Source of the DNA: an uncultured Planctomycetales bacterium
GTDB taxonomy: Bacteria; Omnitrophota; Gorgyraeia; Gygaellales; Profunditerraquicolaceae
DNA length: 64,000 nucleotides
NCBI GenBank assembly: GCA_964579435.1
Contig: CAZOGI010000012.1
Coordinates: 5,781 to 69,780 of the forward strand
Reading direction: 5' to 3'
Shown here piece by piece: positions 4,056 to 46,800 of this stretch. Position 1 is the first letter of the stretch. Each line of letters opens with the position of its first letter. The notes under the pieces were generated by a model, which saw only the letters and a list, made by a program, of their open reading frames with translations, was not told the DNA's origin and did no database searches. The position numbers were made by a program, and so were the translations under genes.

Positions 4056-4535
4056 ATGGGAAAACAGGCACGGGCAATATCAGGCATCAGTCTCAAGGAT
4101 CTGGTCAAGGATCTGAACAAGGCATATGCCGACGAATGGCTGGCATTCTATCTGTACTGGTACATGGCGCGTACCGTATCCGGCAAAGGGTATGAGGATA
4201 TGTCCGAGATGCTGGAGAAGCTGGCGAAAGATGAGTTGGAGCATGCGCAGGAGCTTGCCGATCATATCACCAAGCTGGGAGGGGTGCCGATCGCCAATCC
4301 GATGGAGCTGGAAAAGAACGCCAATGCCCCGTACATCATGCCTCCCAAGAACAGCGCCGATTACAACCGCATCATCCGTATCGTTGCCGATGCGGAGGCG
4401 ACTGCCATCGATGTCTATAACAAGCTGGCGCAGAAAACGCAGGGGAAAGACCACATTACCTACCAGCTGGTTGCCCATATTTTGACGGAAGAGACGGACC
4501 ACGAAGAGATGCTGGAAAACCTGTTAGAGCGTTAA
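4056..4535 (+). CDS. ferritin-like (Dps/bacterioferritin-type) diiron protein
   Basis: The 159-aa protein shows the E..H / E..H ferroxidase-like pattern (DELEHAQ, EETDHEE). Confidence 0.6.
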   Translation: MGKQARAISGISLKDLVKDLNKAYADEWLAFYLYWYMARTVSGKGYEDMSEMLEKLAKDELEHAQELADHITKLGGVPIANPMELEKNANAPYIMPPKNSADYNRIIRIVADAEATAIDVYNKLAQKTQGKDHITYQLVAHILTEETDHEEMLENLLER

Positions 4536-23824: not shown

Positions 23825-24622
23825 ATGCGCGCCCATGCGACTGCGGTCGTTTCTGCGAAAGCCCGGATAGCCGACGATGTGGTGATCGGTCCCTTCTCTG
23901 TCGTCACCGACGGGGTGACGATCGGCGCCGGCTGTGCCATAGGTGCGCACTGCCTTATCGACGGCAATACCGTTCTGGGCGAGCGCTGCCAGGTCTTTAC
24001 CGGGGCTGTTGTCGGCAGCCGGCCCCAGGACCTGAAATTCAAGAATGAGCGTTCTTTCCTGGAGATCGGGGAGGGCACCATCATCCGCGAGTACTGCACC
24101 CTCAATCCCGGGACCGGCGAGGGGGGTAAGACCGTTGTCGGAAGCCACAATCTGTTCATGGCCTATTCGCACGTCGCCCATGACTGCCGGGTCGGCAGCA
24201 ACTGTGTTTTCGCCAACAACGCGACCCTCGCCGGGCATGTGACGGTCGAGGACCGCGCGGTGATCGGCGGGCTGGTGGCGGTACATCAGTTCGTGCGCGT
24301 CGGCATGCTTTCGATCATCGGCGGATGCTCGAAGGTGGTGCAGGATATCCCGCCCTTTTCCACCTGCGACGGCCATCCGGCACGCATCTTCGGCCTGAAT
24401 CTCATCGGCCTGCGCCGCAACAGCGTCTCCAAAGAATCGATACGCCAGCTCGATCAGGCCTTGCGCATACTCTTCAACTCCGGGCATACGATCACCGTTG
24501 CGCTCGCCGAACTGGAGCGCGCTGGCCTCTCGGGTCCGCAGGTCGACTACCTCAAGCAGTTCGTCCGCAGCTCCGAGCGCGGCATCAGCCGTTCCTGCTC
24601 CCGCAAGTCTTCAACCGCATGA
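23825..24622 (+). CDS. lpxA: acyl-ACP--UDP-N-acetylglucosamine O-acyltransferase
   Basis: Hexapeptide repeats and the LpxA C-terminal helical domain. Confidence 0.85.
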   Translation: MRAHATAVVSAKARIADDVVIGPFSVVTDGVTIGAGCAIGAHCLIDGNTVLGERCQVFTGAVVGSRPQDLKFKNERSFLEIGEGTIIREYCTLNPGTGEGGKTVVGSHNLFMAYSHVAHDCRVGSNCVFANNATLAGHVTVEDRAVIGGLVAVHQFVRVGMLSIIGGCSKVVQDIPPFSTCDGHPARIFGLNLIGLRRNSVSKESIRQLDQALRILFNSGHTITVALAELERAGLSGPQVDYLKQFVRSSERGISRSCSRKSSTA

Positions 24623-25425
24623 AGCAACCGATCGGCGTCATCGCCGGCAACAGGAAGTTTCCCCTCGAGTTCTGCAGGGCCGCCCGCGCCCAGGGTGTTG
24701 CGACGGTGGCTATCGCGATCAAGGGCGATACGGCGCGCGCGATCTCTTCGGTTGCCGATAAGGTCTACTGGGTCGGGCTCGAGGAGTTCAGCCGTCTGCC
24801 GCAGATCCTCAAGGCAGAGGGCGTCACTCAGGTGGTGATGGCCGGGCAGATCAGTCCGCACCGGCTTTTTTCGCCGCAGGTAAAGCAGGATGAAACCCTC
24901 GCGCGGCTGTTGGAGAGGCTCTCTAATAAGAAAGCGGATACGATCTTCGGCGCGATTGCCGGGTACCTCAAAGAGAACGGGCTGGAGCTGTTGTCTTCGA
25001 CCCTCTTCATCCAGGAGCTCTTTCCCAAAAAAGGGACACTGACCAAATCACAGCCGCATTTCGACGGATGGGAGGATGTTTATTTCGGTTTTGAGCTGGC
25101 CAAAGAGGTTGCCTTCCTGGATATCGGCCAGACCGTCGCAGTCAAGGAAAAAGCGGTCGTGGCGGTCGAAGCCCTCGAAGGCACGGATAATCTCATCCGC
25201 AGGGCCGGCGCCCTTGCGCGCGGCGGCATCACGGTGGTCAAGGTGGCGAAGCCGAATCAGGACCCCCGCTTCGACGTTCCGGTCGTCGGGTTGAATACCG
25301 TACGCACCCTGATCAAGGTCCGGGCGCGCACCCTGGCTATTGAGGGGGAGAAGACCCTTTTCTTCGACCTTAAGGAGAGCGTTGGGTTGGCTGACCGGGC
25401 AGGATTGTCGATCGTTGCCATCTGA
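24619..25425 (+). CDS. lpxI: UDP-2,3-diacylglucosamine pyrophosphatase LpxI (DUF1009)
   Basis: MKQPIGVIAGNRKFPLEF N-terminus. The ATG overlaps the lpxA stop. The track ORF 24325.. is an upstream extension. Confidence 0.7.
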   Translation: MKQPIGVIAGNRKFPLEFCRAARAQGVATVAIAIKGDTARAISSVADKVYWVGLEEFSRLPQILKAEGVTQVVMAGQISPHRLFSPQVKQDETLARLLERLSNKKADTIFGAIAGYLKENGLELLSSTLFIQELFPKKGTLTKSQPHFDGWEDVYFGFELAKEVAFLDIGQTVAVKEKAVVAVEALEGTDNLIRRAGALARGGITVVKVAKPNQDPRFDVPVVGLNTVRTLIKVRARTLAIEGEKTLFFDLKESVGLADRAGLSIVAI

Positions 25426-25431
25426 ATTTCC

Positions 25432-25460
25432 TTGACAGTCCCTAACACATTGTTTATAAT
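25432..25460 (+). promoter_or_regulatory. consensus sigma70 promoter TTGACA-N17-TATAAT
   Basis: ttgaca at 25432-25437 and tataat at 25455-25460, 24 nt upstream of the CBM48 gene start. Confidence 0.55.
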
Positions 25461-25483
25461 GGGGATAGAAGAAGGAGGGATCT

Positions 25484-25768
25484 ATGCCTAGACTTGTGAA
25501 AGCTGTCGCGGCAAAGACAACGCAGTTTAAGCTCTACGCGCCCGCTGCCCGTTCGGTAGCCGTTGCGGGAAGTTTCAACAATTGGAACGCGCAGGGCTTG
25601 ATTGCGAAAAAGGATTCCAAAGGCAACTGGTCGGCAAAGGTCAGTTTGAAACCGGGTCAGTATGAATACAAATTCGTCGTTGACGGCAATTGGATGAATG
25701 ATCCGGCCTGTTCCGCGACCGTCGGCAATTCCTTTGGTTCCGCGAATTCCGTTCTGCAGGTAAGGTAA
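25484..25768 (+). CDS. stand-alone CBM48 / glycogen-binding (AMPK-beta GBD / isoamylase-N-like) domain protein
   Basis: The 94-aa protein has a ..SVAVAGSFNNWN...YEYKFVVDGNW pattern. Confidence 0.55.
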   Translation: MPRLVKAVAAKTTQFKLYAPAARSVAVAGSFNNWNAQGLIAKKDSKGNWSAKVSLKPGQYEYKFVVDGNWMNDPACSATVGNSFGSANSVLQVR

Positions 25769-25774
25769 GTTTTT

Positions 25775-25825
25775 CACCCCACCCGGTTCGGATCGATAGT
25801 CGATTTCGGGTGGGGTGTTTTTTTA
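25775..25825 (+). terminator. rho-independent terminator
   Basis: Stem cacccccacccg...cgggtggggtg followed by a T7 run. Confidence 0.75.
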
Positions 25826-25851
25826 TCCGCGCCCCGGTAAACGTCTTCGGT

Positions 25852-26571
25852 ATGAAATATCTCTACGGTCCGCTGCGCTCCCGCAGGCTTGGTGTATCCC
25901 TGGGCATCAGCACCACCCCGTATAAGACCTGTAGCTACGATTGTATCTATTGCCAGCTCGGCAAGACAGACCGTACGGTCGCCGAGCGCGCGGAGTATGT
26001 CCCGTGCGCGGCGGTGATCGATGAATTGAAGGGGTGGCTGCGCGCGCATCCGCAGGAAGCCGGGCGGGTCGACTATCTTACTTTCTCCGGGACCGGAGAG
26101 CCGACTTTAAACAGCGGTATCGGCGAGTTGATCCGTCAGATCAAGGAGTTGACCGCGATCCCGGTCGCGGTGCTGACGAACGCCTCGTTGCTCTCGGTGC
26201 CCTCCGTACGCCGGGCTCTGTCCCAGGCCGACCTTATCGTTCCGTCGCTTGACGCCGCGACCGAGGAGGTGTTTGCGCGTATCGACCGGCCGGCGGCCGG
26301 GATCAGGCTCGATGAGGTCATCGAAGGGATCGTCAAGCTGCGGCAGGAATATCAAGGTAAGCTCTGGCTCGAGGTGATGCTGGTTGAGGGCGTCAATGAT
26401 CAGCCGCAGCATCTGGCGGCGCTCAAAGCGGCAATCGGGCTGATTTGTCCCGATAAGGTGCAGCTTAATTCTCCGGTCAGGGTGACGGCCGAGCCGGGGG
26501 TGGTTGGTCTTTCCCCGGAGCGGCTCAGGCAGATCTGCGCTTATTTGGGCAAAGCCTGCGAGATCGTTTAG
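25852..26571 (+). CDS. radical SAM domain protein
   Basis: CSYDCIYC (CX3CX2C) motif near the N-terminus after MKYLYGPLRSRRLGVSLGI. The subfamily is not resolved. Confidence 0.6.
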   Translation: MKYLYGPLRSRRLGVSLGISTTPYKTCSYDCIYCQLGKTDRTVAERAEYVPCAAVIDELKGWLRAHPQEAGRVDYLTFSGTGEPTLNSGIGELIRQIKELTAIPVAVLTNASLLSVPSVRRALSQADLIVPSLDAATEEVFARIDRPAAGIRLDEVIEGIVKLRQEYQGKLWLEVMLVEGVNDQPQHLAALKAAIGLICPDKVQLNSPVRVTAEPGVVGLSPERLRQICAYLGKACEIV

Positions 26572-26664
26572 CCGCCAACCCGAACGCAGTTGAAGGGGTG
26601 GGCACGTTTTTCAATTTTGCGCACCTTGCGCTCATGCGGTATTGCGCAAGTGCGCATTTACTAT

Positions 26665-26690
26665 GCGCCTATAGCTCAATTGGATAGAGC
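26665..26690 (+). pseudogene. tRNA-Arg 5'-half fragment (26 nt identical to the 5' end of the downstream tRNA-Arg, then a variant anticodon-stem strand CCAGC and the shared anticodon loop, then unrelated sequence)
   Basis: gcgcctatagctcaattggatagagc matches at 26665. It cannot form a cloverleaf. Confidence 0.6.
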
Positions 26691-26740
26691 GCCAGCCTTC
26701 GGAACAAATTTGACAAGTTTTGAGATGGTTTTAAGACACT

Positions 26741-26814
26741 GCGCCTATAGCTCAATTGGATAGAGCATCTGCCTTCGGAGCAGAGGGTTGGAGGTTCGAT
26801 TCCTCCTAGGCGCA
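26741..26814 (+). tRNA. tRNA-Arg(TCG)
   Basis: Full cloverleaf: acceptor GCGCCTA/TAGGCGC, anticodon arm TCTGC-CTTCGGA-GCAGA, T-arm GGAGG-TTCGATT-CCTCC. Confidence 0.8.
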
Positions 26815-27180
26815 TTTGAAAATGGTCCCTAAGCCAATTTGGTTTAGGGATTTTTTGTTGGTAGTATCACTTGGTGTGCAGGTATATCCTGTGGTATCGG
26901 TAAAGGATACTTTTTGGATACCAGACATTTTCACGGGATTTTAAGCCTAATGAAGCTTTTAAGATGTCTTTATAGAGCTTTAATTGTTTTTTATAAATAC
27001 CGCCAGTGCTATAATAATGTTATTTAGGGGGGTGATCTTGCAGATTATGGATACACAATCAAAAAGATCAGGAATACCCGGATCATGGGGCTGATGTTGG
27101 TTGGATGTTCGCTGTGCGCAGCGTTATATGTAGTGATGGGGCATCTTCGTCAGGGAAGATAAAACGCGGGAGGGCTGAAT

Positions 27181-28257
27181 ATGGAGAAGAAGAGTGTGCG
27201 TGTGGGCATCGTCGTGGTAGCGGCAGCAAGTACCCTAAATTTACTTACGGTTTTTCCGGCCGGAATTGATCGGGCAGAAGCCGAGATCGAGTCAGGCGCA
27301 TCATCGAGCGTTGTCTTGGTCCCTTCCGATGAAGACAGGGCCGGACCTTGGGGCGCCTTCACCGGAGGCAGCAGCAGGGTAAGGGAGATGTTCGATGGTG
27401 TTACGGACACGGGCGATTGGAAATTTGACGCGGCTCTTTCGCTTGATACCAACAAGACTATCGAGTCAATCAGTATCGCGCACAGCCTTCCCACAGAGCG
27501 AGACATTGACAGGGAGGGTTGGACGACATCGTCAAAGGTTCTGGTGTACGGAAAGACCGCGTATCCCCTGGTTGTCGATTACGGAGGCAAGCAGCTTAAT
27601 TTCGCCAATGACGATCCTTTGGGCAGTTATCCTGCAGGAACTCACCAGTTCAGCCTGTATGCGCAGAAGGAAAATTCGATTTTTTACGGCGGTACGCTGA
27701 GGATTAAATTTACCGACGGCAGCTCGGTGAGCGCGTCTATCCCTGCCCAAAGTATAGTGCAAGCAAAAGAGCCGTTTACTGAGTTGCCTTCGCCAAGGGA
27801 ATCCTCCGACGCGCGGCTTTCCGCGCAGTATCAACACGATCAGGAGAACCGCGTGGGCGGGTTTTATACCTTTGGTCCGGGTTCAGGAGGCTCGGCTGGG
27901 GAGCAGGACTTTAAATTCGAGGCAATCCTCGATATTGTATTGGTGAAGACACTTAAATCGATCGCGCTGATTCATTCCATCCCCGGACAAATATGGACTA
28001 CTGACCAGGGAAATTTGTATCCGATAGCGGTGTTCTATGGGGGAAGACAGTTGAACGATTCCTTCAATTCCCCTCTTGGCGAGTATCAGCCGGGAAGACA
28101 TGTGTTTGAACTGTATGTGCAGAAGGAGAGCCGCAATTTCGAAGGGGGTATCCTGACGTTTACTTTCGGCGACGGCACCAGCGCTTCCTGCACGTTGCCT
28201 AAAGAGGAAAGGACCGCCAAAGCGTTGAGCGAATCGTACCAAGAAGATGCCTATTAG
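27181..28257 (+). CDS. secreted hypothetical protein with two internal ~100-aa repeats, encoded inside a low-GC insert
   Basis: Signal peptide, then two homologous modules (..SISIAHSLP..WTTSSKVLVYGKTAYPLVVDYGGKQLN..PLGSYPAGTHQFSLYAQKE.. and ..SIALIHSIPGQIWTTDQGNLYPIAVFYGGRQLN..PLGEYQPGRHVFELYVQKE..). An AGGGCTGAAT Shine-Dalgarno-like stretch precedes the ATG. Confidence 0.65.
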   Translation: MEKKSVRVGIVVVAAASTLNLLTVFPAGIDRAEAEIESGASSSVVLVPSDEDRAGPWGAFTGGSSRVREMFDGVTDTGDWKFDAALSLDTNKTIESISIAHSLPTERDIDREGWTTSSKVLVYGKTAYPLVVDYGGKQLNFANDDPLGSYPAGTHQFSLYAQKENSIFYGGTLRIKFTDGSSVSASIPAQSIVQAKEPFTELPSPRESSDARLSAQYQHDQENRVGGFYTFGPGSGGSAGEQDFKFEAILDIVLVKTLKSIALIHSIPGQIWTTDQGNLYPIAVFYGGRQLNDSFNSPLGEYQPGRHVFELYVQKESRNFEGGILTFTFGDGTSASCTLPKEERTAKALSESYQEDAY

Positions 28258-28406
28258 AAGCATCGTTCTGACCGAGGGAGACCGGCATTGCTTATACTAC
28301 ATGCGGGGGAGGATACTGTTGTTAGCCGAGCGTAAGCCCCAATCCCAAGATTAAGCTTGTTGCTGAGGTGGACGGGTATAGCAAGGACTATCGTGCCACT
28401 TTTTTT

Positions 28407-28420
28407 GCGCCTATAGCTCA
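28407..28420 (+). repeat. 14-nt copy of the tRNA-Arg 5' end (gcgcctatagctca) followed by hairpin gccgc-N9-gcggc
   Basis: Direct sequence match, 59 nt upstream of the next tRNA. Confidence 0.5.
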
Positions 28421-28478
28421 GCCGCGAAATGCTTGCGGCATGATCTACAGGCGTAAGGAATAAAAACGTGTTATTATT

Positions 28479-28552
28479 GCGCCTATAGCTCAATTGGATA
28501 GAGCATCTGCCTTCGGAGCTGGGCGTTGCTGGTTCGAGTCCAGCTAGGCGCA
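28479..28552 (+). tRNA. tRNA-Arg(TCG), chimeric. The 5' 39 nt are identical to tRNA 26741, and the 3' half is a different allele, giving a U-U mismatch plus a G-U pair in the anticodon stem.
   Basis: Anticodon arm TCTGC-CTTCGGA-GCTGG and T-arm GCTGG-TTCGAGT-CCAGC. The 3' strand GCTGG would pair perfectly with the CCAGC strand carried by the fragment at 26692. Confidence 0.6.
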
Positions 28553-28754
28553 CGATTTTTCACCGCTGCTCATCTATTTTTTTCCTTCCCCTGAGATCTT
28601 TTCCTGCCGCTTCTCTCCCGTTATGCTTCACCGCATTTGCCGGTGTCTTTGTGTCTAGGGGCTTTTTAACGGAACTTTCTTCTGCCTCTTCCTGTCTAAT
28701 GGAGTGAAGAGGCAGGAGCGTAACCCCAAGCCGCGAGGACAAAAGGAGGCAGGT

Positions 28755-29144
28755 ATGAGACAGTGGGGAATCGCATTGGTGCTGGCAGGGGTCATTTTGG
28801 GAGGCGTATCGGTTTCTTACGCCAGTGACTGGGACGTCGCGGGCAAGGTTCTTACGGGAATCGAAGGGATGAGGATACTGACCGGCGGCAAGGTCGACCT
28901 GATCGGCACGATGACCGGGATAAACCGTCAGGACCGGGATCGCCACCGGGAATACGCCCACGGCCGTGGCCGCAACGAAAGCAGGGAATGCCGCAAAGTA
29001 TGGGTATCCCACTATGTCTGGGAGAAGCGGTGGGTCCCTGAGCATACCGAGCATGACCCGCGTTACGGCGAGATTGTCGTTGAAGGCCACTATGTCCGGT
29101 ACAGGGTTGAGCGCGGAGGCAGCTGGCGGTACGATTACCACTAA
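28755..29144 (+). CDS. small secreted hypothetical protein, Arg/Trp/Tyr-rich
   Basis: An AGGAGG Shine-Dalgarno precedes the ATG at 28755. Signal peptide MRQWGIALVLAGVILGGVSVSYA. Confidence 0.55.
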   Translation: MRQWGIALVLAGVILGGVSVSYASDWDVAGKVLTGIEGMRILTGGKVDLIGTMTGINRQDRDRHREYAHGRGRNESRECRKVWVSHYVWEKRWVPEHTEHDPRYGEIVVEGHYVRYRVERGGSWRYDYH

Positions 29145-29183
29145 CATAATCCGCTCAGGCAGTTCGGCATCCGGTTTTTTTTG

Positions 29184-29222
29184 GTGCGCATGCGCTTATT
29201 TTAGGCATGCGCACTTTTTTTC
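29184..29222 (+). terminator. rho-independent terminator
   Basis: gtgcgcatgc...gcatgcgcac stem followed by a T8 run. Confidence 0.75.
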
Positions 29223-29286
29223 CTTTAGGGGCGCCTTGGTGTCTCCCTGATGGCGTCCCCGTGTCCGTTTGTGAACTCAAAAATTC

Positions 29287-29315
29287 GTTTAAATCATGAT
29301 TTATTATGCTATAAT
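29287..29315 (+). promoter_or_regulatory. promoter with extended -10 (TGcTATAAT) upstream of the symporter operon. It is followed by a ~180-nt untranslated leader.
   Basis: AT-rich region with tgctataat at 29307-29315. The -35 match is weak. Confidence 0.4.
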
Positions 29316-29494
29316 GAATTCTCTGCATCGAAAGGCGGCCGATATCTTTTTGGATAAGATAACGGCTTATATTCCAAATAGATGAGTTCCTGCAAAAAGC
29401 GAACCGTGAGCGTATTTTCTGTGTGCTACATGCCCGTCCACTCGAAAACAATCCCCGAATCACCGGTACCGAGAAAAAAGCAAGGAGGTGCGTC

Positions 29495-29665
29495 ATGCTA
29501 GGGATCCAGGATCCGGGCGTATGGTTGGCGTATATTTTGTGCATCCTCAGCGCCGCCTTTTGCGCCGTGTACGGGTTCTCGCACTGGAATAAGGGCGAGG
29601 AACCGGTGTATACCGAAGACAAGAAATGGGTCGAGGCCGAAAAAGAGCTGGAAGAAAAACTCTAA
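29495..29665 (+). CDS. sodium:solute symporter small subunit (DUF4212-like), 56 aa
   Basis: An AGGAGG Shine-Dalgarno precedes it. It is a single-TM small protein immediately upstream of an SSS transporter, which is the typical pairing. Confidence 0.6.
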   Translation: MLGIQDPGVWLAYILCILSAAFCAVYGFSHWNKGEEPVYTEDKKWVEAEKELEEKL

Positions 29666-29681
29666 GAGCGGGGGAAACGGT

Positions 29682-31283
29682 ATGGATAATATGTTCATTC
29701 TCACCATTATCGTAGTCCTTTACCTGTTCGTGATCGGTTATTTGGGATATTACGGCTACCGAAGGACCAAAAACGCACTCGATTACCTGGTTGCCGGGCG
29801 CAGTATCCATCCCTTTGTCATGGCCGTTTCCTACGGTGCCACTTTTATCAGCACCTCGGCAATCGTCGGATTCGGGGGCGCGGCTGCGTTCTTCGGCATG
29901 GGGCTTTTGTGGCTGACCTTCCTTAATATATTCGTCGGTATCGCCATCGCCTTCATCGTCTTCGGCAAACGCACCCGCAAGATGGGCCATAACCTCGATG
30001 TACACACCTTTCCCGAGCTCCTCGGCCGCAGGTTTAATTCCACCTTTATCCAGGGTTTTGCCGGGCTGGTCGTATTCGTTTTCATGCCCCTGTATTCGGC
30101 CGCGGTCCTTATCGGAGCGGCGCGGTTCATAGAGATGACGTTTTCGACAACGATTAATTACAATGTGGCCCTTCTCATCTATACCTTGATTATCACCGCC
30201 TACGTGCTTGCCGGCGGGCTCAAGGGCGTCATGTACACCGATGCGCTGCAGGGGTCGATCATGTTCATGGGGATGGCGGCACTCCTGGTTCTGACGTATG
30301 CGAAACTGGGCGGCGTGGTCAACGCGCACCAGTCGCTCGCCGGGCTCCTGCCGCAGGTGCCGGAGAAGCTCAGCGCCCTCGGGCACCTGGGCTGGACCCA
30401 TATGCCCAAACCGGGGTCAAACCTGTGGTGGAACCTCGTTTCGACGATCGTTCTGGGCGTGGGTGTCGGCGTTCTCACCCAGCCGCAGCTGGCGGTACGT
30501 TTCATGACCGTCAAGAGCAACAAGGAGATTAACCGGGGTGTCGCCATCGGCGGCATCTTTATTCTGATGATGACCGGAGTCGCTTTTATCGTCGGCGCCC
30601 TCTCCAACGTCTATTTTTTCAATAACCCCGCTTTCGGCAAGATTTCCCTTGCGGTTGCCGGCGGCAACATCGATAAGATCATTCCACTCTACATCAACAG
30701 CGCCATGCCGGTCTGGTTCGTGTATCTCTTCATGCTCACGCTCCTGTCGGCGGCGATGTCGACAACCAGCTCGCAGTTTCATTCCATGGGCACCGCTATC
30801 GGCAGGGATTTCTTCGAGAAGACGCTCCTGCGCGGCAAGACCTCCAAATACACGATCCTCATCACGCGCATCGGTATCGTTATCGGCGTGCTGGTGACGG
30901 TGCTCTTGGGGTATAAGCTTCCCGGGAGTGTCATCGCGGTTGCCACGGCTATATTTTTCGGTCTCTGCGCCAACACCTTCCTGCCGACCTATGTCGGGAC
31001 CCTGTTCTGGAAAGGGATGACCAAGGCTGGCGCCATCGCCAGCATGCTCGCCGGATTCTGCGGCACCGCGTTCTGGCTGTTGTTCATCCACCAGAAGGAA
31101 TCCGAGGCGATAGGGCTGTGTAAGTTCATCTTCGATAAGCCGACGCTGGCGCAGTATCCTTGGACGGTGGTTGACCCGATCGTGGCGATATTGCCGGTCT
31201 CGTTCGCGGTTGCGCTGCTGGTGAGCCTGATCACCAAAAAGCCTTCCAAGGATTATATCGAACATTGTTTCAAGCATCTTTAA
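29682..31283 (+). CDS. sodium:solute symporter (SSS family) large subunit
   Basis: The 533-aa protein has about 13 TM helices and the SSS signature region GGLKGVMYTDALQ. Confidence 0.8.
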   Translation: MDNMFILTIIVVLYLFVIGYLGYYGYRRTKNALDYLVAGRSIHPFVMAVSYGATFISTSAIVGFGGAAAFFGMGLLWLTFLNIFVGIAIAFIVFGKRTRKMGHNLDVHTFPELLGRRFNSTFIQGFAGLVVFVFMPLYSAAVLIGAARFIEMTFSTTINYNVALLIYTLIITAYVLAGGLKGVMYTDALQGSIMFMGMAALLVLTYAKLGGVVNAHQSLAGLLPQVPEKLSALGHLGWTHMPKPGSNLWWNLVSTIVLGVGVGVLTQPQLAVRFMTVKSNKEINRGVAIGGIFILMMTGVAFIVGALSNVYFFNNPAFGKISLAVAGGNIDKIIPLYINSAMPVWFVYLFMLTLLSAAMSTTSSQFHSMGTAIGRDFFEKTLLRGKTSKYTILITRIGIVIGVLVTVLLGYKLPGSVIAVATAIFFGLCANTFLPTYVGTLFWKGMTKAGAIASMLAGFCGTAFWLLFIHQKESEAIGLCKFIFDKPTLAQYPWTVVDPIVAILPVSFAVALLVSLITKKPSKDYIEHCFKHL

Positions 31284-40669: not shown

Positions 40670-40742
40670 GGGCCATTAGCTCAATTGGTAGAGCAGGACA
40701 CTCTTAATGTCAAGGTCGATGGTTCGACTCCATCATGGCCCA
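40670..40742 (+). tRNA. tRNA-Lys(CTT)
   Basis: Acceptor GGGCCAT/ATGGCCC, D-arm GCTC-AATTGGTA-GAGC, anticodon loop CTCTTAA, T-arm GATGG-TTCGACT-CCATC. Confidence 0.75.
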
Positions 40743-41056
40743 TTTTTTTCCTGCCGGTCGATGGTTCCCCCTCGCGTAAACGCTCCTCAGATCCCTTGAG
40801 GGAGTCTTCGGAGCACGCTTCGGGGTTAATTCGCGCATTTGACTTACGCTCCGTACCGTCGCGTAAGTCAAGCGCTCATTAAGACTCCATCATGGCCCAT
40901 TTTTTTCCTGCCGGTCGATGGTTCCCCCTCGCGTAAACGCTCCTCAGATCCCTTGAGGGAGTCTTCGGAGCACGCTTCGGGGTTAATTCGCGCATTTGAC
41001 TTACGCTCCGTACCGTCGCGTAAGTCAAGCGCTCATTAAGACTCCATCATGGCCCA
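40743..41056 (+). repeat. two tandem 157-bp direct repeats, each ending with the exact 17-nt 3' terminus of tRNA-Lys (gactccatcatggccca). att-site-like duplications or a structured small-RNA repeat.
   Basis: Units 40743..40899 and 40900..41056 are identical by eye. Each contains a ~15-bp hairpin (gcgcatttgacttacgc...gcgtaagtcaagcgc) and begins with a T-run plus a ggtcgatggttc tRNA-like segment. Confidence 0.8.
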
Positions 41057-41194
41057 TTTTCATTTTCCCGCCTTCGCAAGCGCTTCCCTCTTGCTTTATT
41101 TCCTCGGTAAATAGCCGTATAATACCAGTGGGAGTGTAGAGCCAGGAGCTTGGAATTGAGACTTCCTACTCCTCACCCCAAACTCCAGACTAAA

Positions 41195-41617
41195 ATGACC
41201 GCCCTGCCGTACCAACTCTTAGACCATACCGCCGATATCCGCGTCAGGATAACTGCCGCGACGCTCAAAGAGCTTTTTATAAAAGCGGCAGACGCACTTT
41301 TCGATATTGCGGCACAGCCCCGGACGCCCCGTATCAAAGCGCAGACTCGCGTTACCGTGTCTCTGGAGGCGGCTGAGACCGATGAGCTGTTTGTCGCCTG
41401 GCTCAATGAACTCATTTCTCTCGCGGCGGTGCGCGGGCTTGTTTTTACCCGCTTTCACCTGAACCGCTTTTCCCCTCAGGGTCTCAAGGCTCTTGTCTAC
41501 GGCGCGCCCGTGGCGTCTTTTGAGGTCAAAACCGAGATCAAGGCAGCGACGTTCCACTCTTTGAACGTCAGTAAACAAAAAAGCGGCTGGATCGCCGAAG
41601 TGATCTTCGATACATGA
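41195..41617 (+). CDS. archease (RtcB activator)
   Basis: DHTADIRV motif near the N-terminus; 140 aa; directly upstream of rtcB. Confidence 0.75.
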   Translation: MTALPYQLLDHTADIRVRITAATLKELFIKAADALFDIAAQPRTPRIKAQTRVTVSLEAAETDELFVAWLNELISLAAVRGLVFTRFHLNRFSPQGLKALVYGAPVASFEVKTEIKAATFHSLNVSKQKSGWIAEVIFDT

Positions 41618-43080
41618 AGGCAAAGGATATGTCAGAGATAAAGCTCGAGAAGATCGACGACTACCGCTGGCGTATTCCCAGAAACGCCTTTCCCGGCATG
41701 CGCGTCCCGGGGATCGTCTACGCCGACGAAAAACTGCTCAAGGATATCGCCCGGGATAAAGCGCTCGAGCAGGTGGCCAACGTCGCTTTTCTTCCCGGTA
41801 TCGTCGGCGCTTCCCTGGCCATGCCGGATGTGCACTGGGGATACGGTTTCCCGATCGGCGGCGTGGCGGCGACCGATATCTCCGAAGGAGGGGTGGTTTC
41901 GCCGGGCGGGGTGGGTTTTGACATAAATTGCGGCATCAGGATGCTGCGCACCAACCTGATGCTCGACGACGTCCGGCCGCGCCTGCAGGAACTGGTCTAT
42001 GCGCTCTTTTCCGGCATCCCCTCAGGCGTCGGTTCCAAGGGCGACATAAAACTGACCTGCCGAGAGCAAAAACAGATGCTGGTCAAAGGCGCCGGCTGGG
42101 CGGTTGCCCGGGGGTACGGCACCGAAGACGATCTTGAGTGCACCGAGGAACGCGGCGCCATCGCCGGGGCAGATCCGGATGCAGTCTCCGAGCGCGCGCT
42201 CGAGCGCGGGAAAGCCCAGTCCGGGACCCTGGGTTCGGGCAACCATTTCCTCGAGGTGCAGGTCATCGAGCAGCTCTATGCCCGCGACGCCTGCGACGCG
42301 CTGCATCTGGATGAAGGCCAGATCGTGGTGATGATCCACTCCGGCTCGCGGGGGTTCGGGTATCAGGTCTGCGACGAATCGGTGCGCTCGATGCTCTCCT
42401 GTCTTTCCAAATACCGCATCTGCGTGCCGGACCGTCAGCTTGCCTGTGCCCCGGTTGATTCCCCGGAAGGCCGGGCATATCTGGGAGCAATGCGCTGCGC
42501 CGCCAATTACGCCTGGGCAAACCGGCAGTGCCTGATGCACTTGACGCGCCAGGTTTTTGAGCGGGTCTTCGGCGCTTCCTGGGAAAAGCTGGGGATGTAT
42601 CTTATCTACGACGTTGCCCACAATATCGCCAAGGTAGAGACGCATTCGGTAGGCGGCGTTGAGAGAAAACTCTGCGTCCACCGCAAAGGCGCCACGCGTG
42701 CCTTCGGCCCCGGCCACCCGGCGCTTCCCGAGCGGTACCGGCCCCTGGGCCAGCCGGTGATCATTCCCGGGGATATGGGACGCAATTCGTATCTTCTGCT
42801 GGGCACGCAGCGCTCGATGGAGGAGACCTTCGGCAGCGCCTGTCACGGCGCCGGCAGGGTCAAATCCCGGACCGCAGCGACCCGTTCCATCGATCCACAT
42901 GCTTTGTTGAAAGAACTCGAATCAAAAGGTATAATAGTGAAAGCCTCGGGCCGCGGGACGCTCGTTGAAGAGGCGCCCAGCGCCTATAAAGACGTCAACG
43001 ACGTCGTCTCGGTCGTCCATGACGCGGGAATAGCGCGCCGCGTCTGCAGGATGCGCCCGCTGGGCGTCATTAAAGGTTGA
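41614..43080 (+). CDS. rtcB: RNA 3'-phosphate/2',3'-cyclic phosphate ligase RtcB
   Basis: The 488-aa protein has the conserved His/Cys metal ligands (GSGNHFLEV, HSGSRG, CHGAGR). Confidence 0.85.
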   Translation: MKAKDMSEIKLEKIDDYRWRIPRNAFPGMRVPGIVYADEKLLKDIARDKALEQVANVAFLPGIVGASLAMPDVHWGYGFPIGGVAATDISEGGVVSPGGVGFDINCGIRMLRTNLMLDDVRPRLQELVYALFSGIPSGVGSKGDIKLTCREQKQMLVKGAGWAVARGYGTEDDLECTEERGAIAGADPDAVSERALERGKAQSGTLGSGNHFLEVQVIEQLYARDACDALHLDEGQIVVMIHSGSRGFGYQVCDESVRSMLSCLSKYRICVPDRQLACAPVDSPEGRAYLGAMRCAANYAWANRQCLMHLTRQVFERVFGASWEKLGMYLIYDVAHNIAKVETHSVGGVERKLCVHRKGATRAFGPGHPALPERYRPLGQPVIIPGDMGRNSYLLLGTQRSMEETFGSACHGAGRVKSRTAATRSIDPHALLKELESKGIIVKASGRGTLVEEAPSAYKDVNDVVSVVHDAGIARRVCRMRPLGVIKG

Positions 43081-43093
43081 GGGAGGAGCAGGC

Positions 43094-44371
43094 ATGCTTG
43101 ATCTGAAATTCATCCGCGACAATGCCGATGCCGTGCGTCAGTCGCTTCGGGACCGGAACTCTTCGCTCGATATCAGCCGGCTCCTGGAGCTGGACGACCA
43201 GCGCCGCGCGGTGCTGCTTGAGGTCGAGGAGTTGCGCGCACAGAAGAACCGGGCCAATGACGAGATCTCCCGTCTCCTGAAAGAGAAGCAGGACCCCAAG
43301 CCCGCGATCGCCTCGATGAAAGAGGTCGCCGCCTCCATCGACGCGCTCGAGGTGCGCCTCAAAGCAGCGGAGAGCGAAATCAATGCCGTGCTGCTGACCA
43401 TTCCGAATGTCCCGCACGCCTCCATCCCGCGCGGGGATCCGTCGCACAACAAAGTCGTGCGCGCCTGGGGAGAGCCGCGGCAGTTCGATTTCAAGCCGTT
43501 GACCCATATCGAGATCGCGCAGAACCTGGATTGCGTTGATTTTGCCCGGGCCACCAAGATAACCGGCTCGAATTTCATACTCTTCAAAAAGTGGGGGGCG
43601 AAGCTTGAGCGGGCGCTGATCAATTTCATGCTCGACCTGCATACTTCCAAGCACGGGTATACCGAGGTCTTTCCGCCTTTCCTGGTCAACCGCGCCTCGA
43701 TGACCGGCACCGGCCAGCTGCCGAAGCTCGAAGAGGATATGTACCGTCTCAAGGACGACGATCTTTTCCTCATCCCGACCGCGGAAGTCCCGGTGACCAA
43801 TATCTTCCGCGACGACGTTTTGGAAGAAAAGGACCTGCCGGTCCTCTACACCGCCTACTCCGCCTGCTTCCGCCGCGAAGCCGGCTCCTACGGCAAGGAT
43901 ACCAAGGGGCTCATGCGCGTGCATCAGTTCGACAAGGTGGAGATGGTCAAATTCGTGAAGCCCGAGAGTTCCTACGATGAGCTGGAGCGGCTGGTCCGTG
44001 ACGCGGAGGAGGTCCTGCAGCTCCTGGGCCTGCCTTACCGCGTGGTGATGCTCTCGACCCAGGATATCAGCTTTGCGGCAAGCAAATGTTACGACCTGGA
44101 GGCGTATGCCGCGGGGATCGATAAGTGGCTGGAGGTTTCCAGCTGTTCGAATTTCGAGAATTTCCAGGCGCGCCGCGCCAATATCAGGTTCCGCCGCGCC
44201 GATACGCGCAAAATGGATTTCGTGCATACCTTGAACGGCTCGGGCGTCGCGCTGGCGCGCACCGTGGTTTGCATCCTGGAAAATTACCAGCAGAAGGACG
44301 GCAGCGTGACGGTCCCCGATGCCCTACGGAGATACCTGGATGGGAAGGAAACCCTTACCCCCGAACCCTGA
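43094..44371 (+). CDS. serS: seryl-tRNA synthetase
   Basis: N-terminal coiled-coil plus class II core motifs (FRREAGS, GSGVALAR). Confidence 0.9.
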   Translation: MLDLKFIRDNADAVRQSLRDRNSSLDISRLLELDDQRRAVLLEVEELRAQKNRANDEISRLLKEKQDPKPAIASMKEVAASIDALEVRLKAAESEINAVLLTIPNVPHASIPRGDPSHNKVVRAWGEPRQFDFKPLTHIEIAQNLDCVDFARATKITGSNFILFKKWGAKLERALINFMLDLHTSKHGYTEVFPPFLVNRASMTGTGQLPKLEEDMYRLKDDDLFLIPTAEVPVTNIFRDDVLEEKDLPVLYTAYSACFRREAGSYGKDTKGLMRVHQFDKVEMVKFVKPESSYDELERLVRDAEEVLQLLGLPYRVVMLSTQDISFAASKCYDLEAYAAGIDKWLEVSSCSNFENFQARRANIRFRRADTRKMDFVHTLNGSGVALARTVVCILENYQQKDGSVTVPDALRRYLDGKETLTPEP

Positions 44372-46249: not shown

Positions 46250-46288
46250 TCGCTGGCTTCGGGACGAATTTGCTGAAGAGAGAGAGCG
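46250..46288 (+). repeat. 39-nt direct repeat, copy 1 (copy 2 at 46664..46702, immediately upstream of tRNA-Ser)
   Basis: tcgctggcttcgggacgaatttgctgaag[a/t]gagagagcg occurs twice, 414 nt apart. Confidence 0.7.
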
Positions 46289-46381
46289 TTTGTCCCGACT
46301 TATAAGCAATGCCAAAATTCTCTGCGATAATTTTGGCATATGCGTCGGGATTTCGCTGGATTTTCTTGTTTGTGTGCTCAA

Positions 46382-46399
46382 GGTGGGGTGGCAGAGCGG
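46382..46399 (+). pseudogene. 18-nt fragment identical to the 5' end of tRNA-Ser (ggtggggtggcagagcgg)
   Basis: Exact match to 46710..46727; no cloverleaf follows. Confidence 0.6.
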
Positions 46400-46426: not shown

Positions 46427-46566
46427 AGGTGAGCACGAAGGAGTCCTGCGAGAAACTAGGTGGTTTTACCCGGACGAGCAGGACCAAGAGTGCGTGCCCG
46501 GGAAAATATAGGTGAGCACGAGGGAGTCCTGCGAGAAACTAGGTGGTTTTACCCGGACGAGCAGGA
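46427..46566 (+). repeat. two copies of a 57-nt direct repeat (46427..46483 and 46510..46566, one mismatch) containing stem gtcctgc...gcaggac
   Basis: aggtgagcacga[a/g]ggagtcctgcgagaaactaggtggttttacccggacgagcagga occurs twice with an 83-nt period. Confidence 0.75.
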
Positions 46567-46663: not shown

Positions 46664-46702
46664 TCGCTGGCTTCGGGACGAATTTGCTGAAGTAAGAGAG
46701 CG
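46664..46702 (+). repeat. 39-nt direct repeat, copy 2, preceded by near-perfect hairpin gtgcaatttcag-N7-gtgaaattgcac
   Basis: See copy 1. Confidence 0.7.
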
Positions 46703-46709
46703 AAATTCG

Positions 46710-46800
46710 GGTGGGGTGGCAGAGCGGTCGAATGCGGCAGTCTTGAAAACTGTTGTCCCGCTTCGCGGGACCGTGAGTTCGAATCTCACCCCCACCGCCA
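46710..46800 (+). tRNA. tRNA-Ser(TGA), class II with long variable arm, CCA encoded
   Basis: Acceptor GGTGGGG/CCCCACC, anticodon loop CTTGAAA, variable arm GTCCCG-cttc-CGGGAC, T-arm GTGAG-TTCGAAT-CTCAC, discriminator G. Confidence 0.8.

Follow-up and report, generated by a model that had tools for sequence, protein, structure and literature searches.

Four copies of the 5' end of a tRNA-Arg(UCG) gene lie around a single gene for a secreted protein in the 64,000-nt stretch of contig CAZOGI010000012.1 analysed here (the window). This arrangement raises the question of whether foreign DNA has entered a tRNA gene at this place, by which route and from which source. We find that an insert of 1,814 bp (26704-28517, plus strand), whose ends are ambiguous within a 7-9-bp core, splits a resident tRNA-Arg(UCG) gene exactly at its anticodon loop, that two types of tRNA-Arg are present around the junctions and that the inserted DNA is foreign in composition. 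The insert is a tRNA-integrated island, unusually small and without an integrase, and the kind of event is already well known. Loci of related genomes and contigs that were fetched for comparison are referred to by labels (L001, L082 and so on).

A resident tRNA-Arg gene split at the anticodon loop

The 14-mer GCGCCTATAGCTCA has four exact copies in the window, at 26665, 26741, 28407 and 28479, all on the plus strand. These are the positions given for the tRNA 5' ends in an initial annotation of this DNA, and a search allowing up to one mismatch returned four matches as compared to none in 100 shuffles. The first copy opens fragment A (26665-26703, plus strand), which forms the left junction. 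Fragment A is 39 nt long and runs from the first tRNA base to the last base of the anticodon loop (...GAGCG-CCAGC-CTTCGGA, with the loop at 26697-26703); it holds positions 1-38 of the resident tRNA-Arg(UCG), here named type N, as a 5' half that has been displaced. Past CTTCGGA the sequence leaves the tRNA for the unrelated, AT-rich ACAAATTTG.... The second copy belongs to tRNA B (26741-26814, plus strand), an intact tRNA-Arg(UCG) of foreign type which is called by both ARAGORN and Rfam (73.6 bits). Its anticodon stem is TCTGC/GCAGA, as originally described, and its T stem is GGAGG/CCTCC.

The right junction lies in tRNA D (28479-28552, plus strand), a hybrid tRNA-Arg(UCG) that ARAGORN and Rfam also call (61.3 bits), flagging one non-standard pair in the anticodon stem. 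The first 41 nt of D are those of B (through ...TCTGC CTTCGGA GC, preceded by GAGCA), while its 3' half is different (TGG GCGTT GCTGG TTCGAGT CCAGC TAGGCGCA). Three parts can be distinguished in D: residues 28479-28510 are element-derived and equal to B, residues 28511-28519 (CTTCGGAGC) are shared and hold the crossover, and residues 28520-28552 are the 3' half of the resident type N. When the anticodon-stem pairing of D is computed, it reads U27·G43, C-G, U29·U41, G-C and C-G, and the U29·U41 mismatch bears out the proposal that this tRNA is chimeric. The CCAGC strand of fragment A, in turn, pairs perfectly (5/5) with the GCTGG strand of D (28518-28522), which had likewise been predicted. Alignment of the copies confines the crossover to CTTCGGA(GC), so that the breakpoint initially placed in the CTTCGGA anticodon loop stands.

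Joining fragment A to the 3' half of D reconstructs N, a tRNA with perfect pairing. The computed cloverleaf energies are -29.9 kcal/mol for B, -31.6 kcal/mol for N and -27.2 kcal/mol for D; D is of full length, but it carries the mismatch and is 4.4 kcal/mol weaker than N. B and N are identical at 63 of 74 positions, including the first 26 bases, and differ by five compensatory pair changes. The split is reciprocal, A being N from positions 1 to 38 and D being N from positions 39-41 on, with no resident base lost, and the compensatory stem differences at 27:43 and 29:41 match each other across 1.8 kb. We surveyed 131 D-arm/anticodon arms of tRNA-Arg(TCG) in all fetched DNA, and 127 of them have all five stem pairs; only A, D and two 5' halves from L179 and L184 fall short of this. 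A hybrid arm like that of D was found in none of the approximately 125 other arms of this survey. D is therefore a true hybrid, and the resident gene survives in two pieces, as fragment A and as the 3' half of D.

The upstream gene order of the site is kept in metagenome-assembled genomes of Candidatus Omnitrophota, which provide the best matches of the radical-SAM protein encoded next to the tRNA, but at 55-61% identity only. The comparison with empty sites suggested at the outset could thus be made with distant relatives, whose flanking protein is ~60% identical. In L001, L082-L086, L118, L126 and L170 the radical-SAM gene is directly followed by one uninterrupted tRNA-Arg(UCG), and tRNA-Lys(CUU) and usually archease-RtcB-SerS lie farther on. 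The window has the same order, with tRNA-Lys at 40670 and archease at 41150, then RtcB and SerS. No empty site of the same species was found in a scan of genome collections with the radical-SAM protein (at most 58% identity) or in the protein search (at most 61%). The syntenic tRNA-Arg of L001, L082, L085, L086, L118 and L170 matches N at 64-70 of 74 positions and B at 59-61, whereas that of L126 matches N at 61 and B at 72 of 74, only pair 6:67 being different. In the groundwater contig L145, positions 18-74 of the tRNA-Arg are exactly those of N and the anticodon arm is uninterrupted. As judged from these alignments, N is the vertical allele of the site. B is of the foreign type, and the earlier view that the insert brought its own tRNA-Arg agrees with this.

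The remaining copy, fragment C (28407-28420, plus strand), is a 14-nt tRNA-Arg 5' end which stops in the D loop and is followed by the hairpin CCGCGAAATGCTTGCGG; a spacer (28421-28478, GC content ~0.42) separates it from D. It had been counted with the other copies as a part of the recombined locus. The copy is present, but it is a separate, older scar of D-loop type carried in the insert and is not part of the anticodon-loop crossover. The same pattern occurs at eight other loci: 11-19-nt 5' fragments are located 53-414 nt upstream of an intact tRNA-Arg in relatives, where 3' fragments starting at the T loop are also present downstream.

Composition and cargo of the insert

The insert has a GC content of 0.493, compared with a mean of 0.594 (standard deviation 0.045, 300-nt windows) for the 64-kb window. 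The first inserted DNA is a 37-nt AT-rich spacer between A and B (26704-26740, plus strand; GC 0.297), and tRNA B is directly followed by a terminator-like hairpin of the intrinsic type with 13 pairs and a T run (26824-26862, plus strand). The non-coding stretch reported as AT-rich (26815-27180, plus strand) has a GC content of 0.402, and 26800-27100 only 0.355; the depression is real in windowed GC. Every 300-nt window below 0.41 in the 64 kb scanned falls at 26701-26901, with a minimum of 0.383, and GC is 0.43-0.455 in the related Omnitrophota loci. The inserted DNA is compositionally foreign. The stretch also contains the ribosome-binding site of the cargo gene and a TATAAT hexamer at 27011-27016. 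Such boxes had been described as promoter-like; one of them does exist, but the region has no excess of sites of this kind (1 found versus 2.3 expected by chance), and the promoter claim was dropped.

The one protein gene of the insert (27181-28257, plus strand) encodes 358 amino acids with a signal-peptide-like N-terminus, consistent with the secreted protein described before. Its GC at third codon positions (GC3) is 0.588 as compared to 0.73-0.86 in most neighbours, the CBM48 and archease genes being low as well. The protein has no Pfam match. It contains an uncharacterised, beta-rich domain of about 140 residues twice, and the two copies share 39% identity. A word-indexed search with the protein returned itself and one weak match, while an exhaustive HMMER search of representative proteins (E up to 1e-3) returned 210 homologues, the best being 51% identical over 329 residues and encoded in an ordinary chromosomal operon with no tRNA nearby. 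Many of the homologues are secreted proteins of 1000-2000 residues in which the domain is often repeated. In the larger proteins it is accompanied by DsbA-like, PG_binding_1 (peptidoglycan-binding), dockerin and Ig-like domains, and these partners indicate that the domain is extracytoplasmic. Going by its homologues, the cargo domain is an uncharacterised extracytoplasmic family for which there is no Pfam model. A single-sequence AlphaFold model of the protein had a mean pLDDT (predicted local distance difference test) of 45.9 and was not used for a fold search.

Several other origins of the inserted DNA were considered. Once the tRNA is set aside, nothing in the insert resembles phages, plasmids, viral contigs or the fetched loci. 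A phage or plasmid origin was rejected since only tRNA-length matches occur in phages and plasmids, and in viral contigs neither the arm pattern of the tRNA nor the predicted circular junction nor the cargo protein had a match. The 37-nt spacer was tried as a remnant of the 3' end of a donor radical-SAM gene, and its local alignments were no better than those of shuffles (p 0.04-0.45); its similarity to the flanks of the relatives was not significant. A search for repeats revealed no inverted pair at the ends of 26704-28517, as a transposon or a miniature inverted-repeat transposable element (the type of insertion in L179) would have together with a short target-site duplication, and the junctions share a 7-bp core as conservative recombination would give. 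Rfam, at E values up to 1, finds only tRNA in 24000-31000, and unlike a group I intron the insert holds a protein gene and a complete tRNA.

Entry of the insert and the competing explanations

The locus was probably formed by a Campbell-type insertion of a foreign circle of about 1.8 kb at the anticodon loop, an explanation that we favour with some reserve. The most likely agent is a tyrosine-type site-specific recombinase that acted in trans or has since been lost. The circular DNA would have entered the resident tRNA-Arg(UCG) by one reciprocal crossover inside the 7-9-bp sequence CTTCGGA[GC], which encodes the anticodon loop. The element would have used a copied 5' half of tRNA-Arg, of type B, as its attachment site, and exchange between the chromosomal site ...CCAGC-CTTCGGA-GCTGG... 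and the element site ...TCTGC-CTTCGGA-ACAAATTTG... would yield both junctions, being confined to CTTCGGA at the left and to CTTCGGAGC at the right one. The resident 5' half would have been pushed to the left and kept as the dead fragment A, the 5' half of the element would have been fused to the resident 3' half to give the hybrid D with one U·U mismatch in its anticodon stem, and a complete type-B tRNA-Arg(UCG) would have come along with its own terminator. As the insert brings the complete tRNA B and this terminator, the supply of the tRNA would not depend on the hybrid D. Under this scheme the empty site would read GAGCGCCAGCCTTCGGAGCTGGGCG in silico, and the predicted junction of the circle is ...GTTATTATTGCGCCTATAGC...ATCTGCCTTCGGAACAAATTTGAC. 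The donor was probably another, lower-GC member of the same Omnitrophota-like lineage with a type-B tRNA-Arg(UCG); an origin in such a relative fits both the composition of the insert and the identity of B. The half-tRNA attachment site together with B resembles the scar that a previous, similar event in a B-type host would leave.

The exchange took place in the last 7-9 nt of the homology between the two tRNA types, past three mismatches, and not in the block of 26 identical bases (positions 1-26). The location of the crossover past mismatches at the inner edge of the homology, at an anticodon-centred site, favours a site-specific enzyme over general homologous recombination. The initial annotation had read the locus as an integrase-less islet produced by a tyrosine integrase. 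The insertion, its position, which is of the anticodon-centred class of tRNA-gene (tDNA) sites, and the imported tRNA all hold, while the enzyme and any current mobility are matters of inference.

Elements of comparable economy are known from Streptococcus, where cis-mobilizable elements (CIMEs) are integrase-less, flanked by attachment sites, and thought either to depend on the integrase of a related element or to be decay products. CIMEs are defined next to, or by accretion with, a cognate integrative and conjugative element at the 3' end of a protein gene. Like them, the insert has a short cargo between attL- and attR-like sites and no recombinase of its own; unlike them, it has no known cognate element. 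The closest framework is that of Islander (Hudson, Lau and Williams 2015), in which the anticodon-centred site is the commonest class (2083 of 3919 islands; PMC4383910). As in these tDNA islands, the ends of the insert are marked by a regenerated or intact tRNA and a displaced fragment in the same orientation (5' fragment A upstream of D, plus strand), the crossover lies in the anticodon loop and the DNA between the ends is foreign in composition. Islander requires a cognate end fragment in the same orientation on the proper side (a 5' one upstream or a 3' one downstream), as is the case for A, a known subsite (anticodon loop, T loop or T/acceptor junction), a PF00589 integrase and a length of 2-200 kb. 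The insert differs in having no integrase and a single open reading frame (ORF) without a Pfam match, in its length of 1,814 bp and in that the 5' part of the gene is replaced, the regenerated gene is an imperfect hybrid and an extra complete tRNA-Arg is carried. Islander would reject the insert because it is shorter than 2 kb and has no integrase; falling below both the size and the integrase filters, it reveals that tools of this kind are blind to a class of very small islets.

A locus of similar layout has been described in the archaeon Caldiarchaeum subterraneum, where a 5' tRNA fragment is located 1.8 kb upstream of the full tRNA-Thr(GGU) gene and the intervening sequence was interpreted as a mobile element integrated in the tRNA gene (Sugahara et al. 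2012, PMC3293823). Both loci have the 5' fragment ~1.8 kb upstream of a full tRNA gene, with DNA in between that is interpreted as inserted. The archaeal insert, however, encodes a DNA recombinase and is present in six copies, and its tRNA has introns, whereas in the insert of the window no recombinase was detected and no other copy is known.

Several observations weigh against the insertion of a circle by a recombinase. Pfam detected no recombinase domain among the ~45 ORFs scanned across the window, the ORF of the insert included, which agrees with the integrase-less character noted initially. In the inferred circle, 37 nt would separate the half-tRNA attachment site from the complete gene of the same tRNA downstream of it, a layout that itself calls for an earlier event. 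In the flanking protein even the closest relatives share only ~60% identity, and at 1.8 kb the insert is shorter than the self-sufficient islands that are known. Displacement of a 5' fragment is the less common configuration among known tDNA islands, with 159 cases versus 3760 islands with the 3' part replaced (3919 in total; PMC4383910). Finally, many other partial tRNA duplications in the D and T loops occur in the lineage, and they may reflect a different mechanism.

Acquisition by homology alone, which we regard as rather unlikely, would dispense with a site-specific recombinase: DNA of a related lineage, taken up for example as a circle or joined by homology-facilitated illegitimate recombination, would have recombined with tRNA-Arg as the RecA anchor, and an incoming truncated tRNA would have set the end of the left copy. 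The absence of a detected recombinase speaks for this, as do the 26 identical 5' bases of B and N (63/74 overall) and the match of B to the syntenic gene of L126, by which the donor could simply be the orthologous locus; the content of the tRNA-Arg to tRNA-Lys interval also varies among the relatives, from 0.1 to 5 kb compared with 12 kb here. However, a RecA-driven exchange is difficult to reconcile with a crossover in the last 7-9 nt, past the three mismatches and outside the 26-nt block, and the 38 nt of imperfect homology are near or below the usual RecA minimum. An exact reciprocal split without the loss of a resident base would be unusual for illegitimate joining, and no significant similarity links the 37-nt spacer to the flanks of relatives. 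We give little credence to homing-like repair, in which a nuclease break in the anticodon loop would have been mended from a foreign template carrying the insert, in the manner of free-standing homing-endonuclease cassettes. Such cassettes do occur at tRNA genes in the fetched loci: L144, from another lineage, has tandem GIY-YIG cassettes downstream of tRNA-Arg(TCG) and L184 a GIY-YIG ORF by tRNA-Phe, and T4 SegB, a homing nuclease acting in a tRNA gene region (PMC13096335), sets a precedent. The cassettes resemble the insert in targeting tRNA genes and in leaving duplicated tRNA ends, and form tandem units, but they encode a nuclease and spread through unidirectional gene conversion, and those observed make use of the T loop or the 3' end. 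In the insert, the only ORF encodes a secreted protein and has no GIY-YIG, HNH or LAGLIDADG domain, there is no nuclease ORF nearby, and the resident halves are kept reciprocally, whereas homing copies donor flanks on both sides.

An origin without any foreign DNA appears quite improbable to us. In this case an old local duplication of tRNA-Arg would have been followed by divergence of the copies and by gene conversion in which B overwrote the 5' half of D, fragment A being an unrelated truncated pseudogene. B and N do share a T-A pair at 6:67 and the D loop AATTGG, features that were not seen in the relatives and that could mean common descent or homogenisation within the genome, and partial tRNA duplicates are common in the window. 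Yet fragment A ends exactly where the chimerism of D starts, which is too neat for independent events; B is identical to the gene of another lineage at 72 of 74 positions with five compensatory pair differences from N, and the insert combines the lowest GC of the window with an atypical GC3 of its cargo. That the assembly or binning has joined two strains or organisms at the repeated tRNA sequence is hardly credible, even for what is evidently a metagenome-derived contig. The Logan assembly contig L081 breaks at the repeat (...CTTCGGAGC) and thereby reveals a branch in the graph; the same contig, however, reproduces 26836-28519 exactly, including fragment C, the spacer and the B-type 5' half, from an independent assembly. 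At each junction only 12-13 nt (12 nt in D) separate the nearest bases diagnostic of the one and the other type, so that the k-mers of the assembler must come from real reads at both junctions: a de Bruijn mis-join at D would need a shared k-1-mer of 10 nt or less, which is far below the k of any assembler. It is these closely spaced bases and the exact reproduction in Logan that make an artefact unlikely, and the flanks on both sides are syntenic with the relatives.

Scarred tRNA genes and a structured element in related loci

Insertion into a tRNA gene with a substitute tRNA, the logic of the initial annotation, was seen independently in L179 and L184. In L179 (1755-2023, minus strand; Omnitrophota synteny), a perfect tRNA-Arg(UCG) is split at positions 37/38 by an insert of ~195 nt that contains a complete, different tRNA-Arg(UCG), thus a tRNA inside a tRNA. 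The ends of this insert are imperfect inverted repeats (GTCCCTCG...CGAGGGGC), and a target duplication of 2-3 bp is possible. In L184 (1195-2695, minus strand), a tRNA-Arg(TCG) 5' fragment extends to position 41, and after it come ~1.2 kb, an intact tRNA-Arg(TCG) and a 3' fragment starting at the T loop. The ~1.2-kb stretch holds one gene for a signal-peptide protein unrelated to the cargo of the window, and no recombinase is nearby. Its GIY-YIG ORF beside tRNA-Phe is located at 4148-4393.

Other scars are located downstream of the tRNA. L144 (2340-2990, minus strand), of another lineage, has two tandem cassettes of ~325 nt downstream of tRNA-Arg(TCG). In each, an 87-residue GIY-YIG ORF (PF01541, 44.4 bits) precedes a copy of the final 17 nt of the tRNA, which begins in the T loop; a 5' fragment of 15 nt is also present there, 55 nt upstream. 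Two GC-rich palindromes were observed as well. One of 30 nt (TCCGCCGTAGGCGGATCCGCCTGCGGCGGA) is located in the D loop of the otherwise N-type tRNA-Arg of L145 (1099-1203, minus strand), and one of 14 nt (GTCGCCGCGGCGAC) replaces the 5' strand of the anticodon stem in a downstream tRNA-Arg copy of L186, near a 3' fragment.

The window itself has partial tRNA duplicates at three of its four tRNA loci, so that, with tRNA-Arg, tRNA-Lys and tRNA-Ser, three quarters of these loci are scarred. A copy of the first 18 nt of tRNA-Ser(UGA) (46710-46800) is present at 46382-46399, 328 nt upstream, and about 40 nt of the upstream flank are duplicated (46250-46290 and 46664-46705). The inserted DNA has an internal tandem repeat (~46427-46560), and tRNA positions 19-26 (TCGAATGC) return after the insert. 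The tRNA-Lys(CUU) (40670-40742) is followed by two identical tandem units of 157 nt (40743-41056), in each of which the 3' portion of the tRNA-Lys, from the variable loop to the 3' end, is interrupted at 56/57 in the T loop by a structured element of 115 nt. In this element, which folds with a z-score of -6.6, a helix (TTAATGAGC/GCGAATTAA) containing tandem G·A pairs is accompanied by a hairpin that covaries and by a CCCC...GGGG domain; the matches of our covariance model in the window are at 40822-40882 and 40979-41039 on the minus strand.

Many of the duplicated units in the window and the relatives contain this conserved element. Across the loci, the helix (TNAATGAGC/GCGAATTN'A) retains its tandem G·A pairs while N and N' covary (TTAAT/ATTAA, TAAAT/ATTTA, TCAAT/ATTGA), the hairpin shows compensatory changes in 9 of 12 pairs and the second domain is CCCC...GGGG. 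The folding z-scores range from -4.5 to -6.8 and are better on the TTAATGAGC strand. The element has no match in Rfam. Its AUGAG...CGAA motif was considered as a hammerhead and this was rejected, since C3, G5 and A15.1 are not conserved and Rfam finds nothing. The covariance model places the element only beside tRNA-Arg and tRNA-Lys in Omnitrophota-type loci, and nowhere in ~2.4 Mb of other DNA. A loose pattern gave at least 120 matches in viral contigs, and these are chance matches since none passes the covariance model. In the relatives the element is located at L082 6725-7930 and 8440-8860, in the same region of L083 and L084, and at L001 2600-3040, L085 11922-11984, L086 7545-7611, L118 1026-1134 and L179 2074-2133 and 3311-3386. 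It is found in three settings: behind 5' fragments, 12-17 nt long, of tRNA-Arg or tRNA-Lys, with a D-loop junction; reversed, inside 3' halves interrupted in the T loop; and directly 3' of tRNA-Lys, upstream of archease or other genes. Its tandem copy number varies among samples with an identical flanking protein, L082 having more downstream units than L083 and L084.

These scars suggest, tentatively, a wider class to which the insert may belong, although we would not count on it. The insert would then be the cargo-bearing member of undescribed, lineage-wide elements which invade the D, anticodon and T loops of Omnitrophota-like tRNA genes by means of a trans-acting enzyme that recognises the hairpin loops of tRNA genes. 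Such elements would carry a replacement tRNA piece or a whole tRNA, by which the host survives, and their smallest members would be non-coding, 125-200 nt long, with a two-domain fold and in tandem arrays beside the archease-RtcB operon. The pattern of tRNA scars and the structured element, which is absent from databases, are a more novel lead than the insert. If the element is indeed mobile, it would be a new kind of tRNA-gene parasite, in a phylum without cultured members.

The insert is evidence of gene flow from one Omnitrophota lineage to another, at a conserved hot spot composed of the radical-SAM gene, tRNA-Arg, a variable interval, tRNA-Lys and archease-RtcB. Upstream of the site, the window encodes BamA, OmpH, LpxD, LpxC-FabZ, LpxA, LpxI, a CBM48 protein and the radical-SAM protein. 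The interval between D and tRNA-Lys is 12 kb with a host-like GC3 and contains genes for a sodium:solute symporter, a porin, IorAB, two phenylacetate-CoA ligases, ACT-domain proteins and an amidohydrolase; of the ~45 window ORFs scanned, all those with a Pfam match are housekeeping or metabolic genes. The operon of archease and RtcB, an RNA ligase, and SerS adjoin the tRNA-Arg/tRNA-Lys hot spot across the relatives (41150-44371 in the window; L082-L086), and the RtcB of L086 carries an intein.

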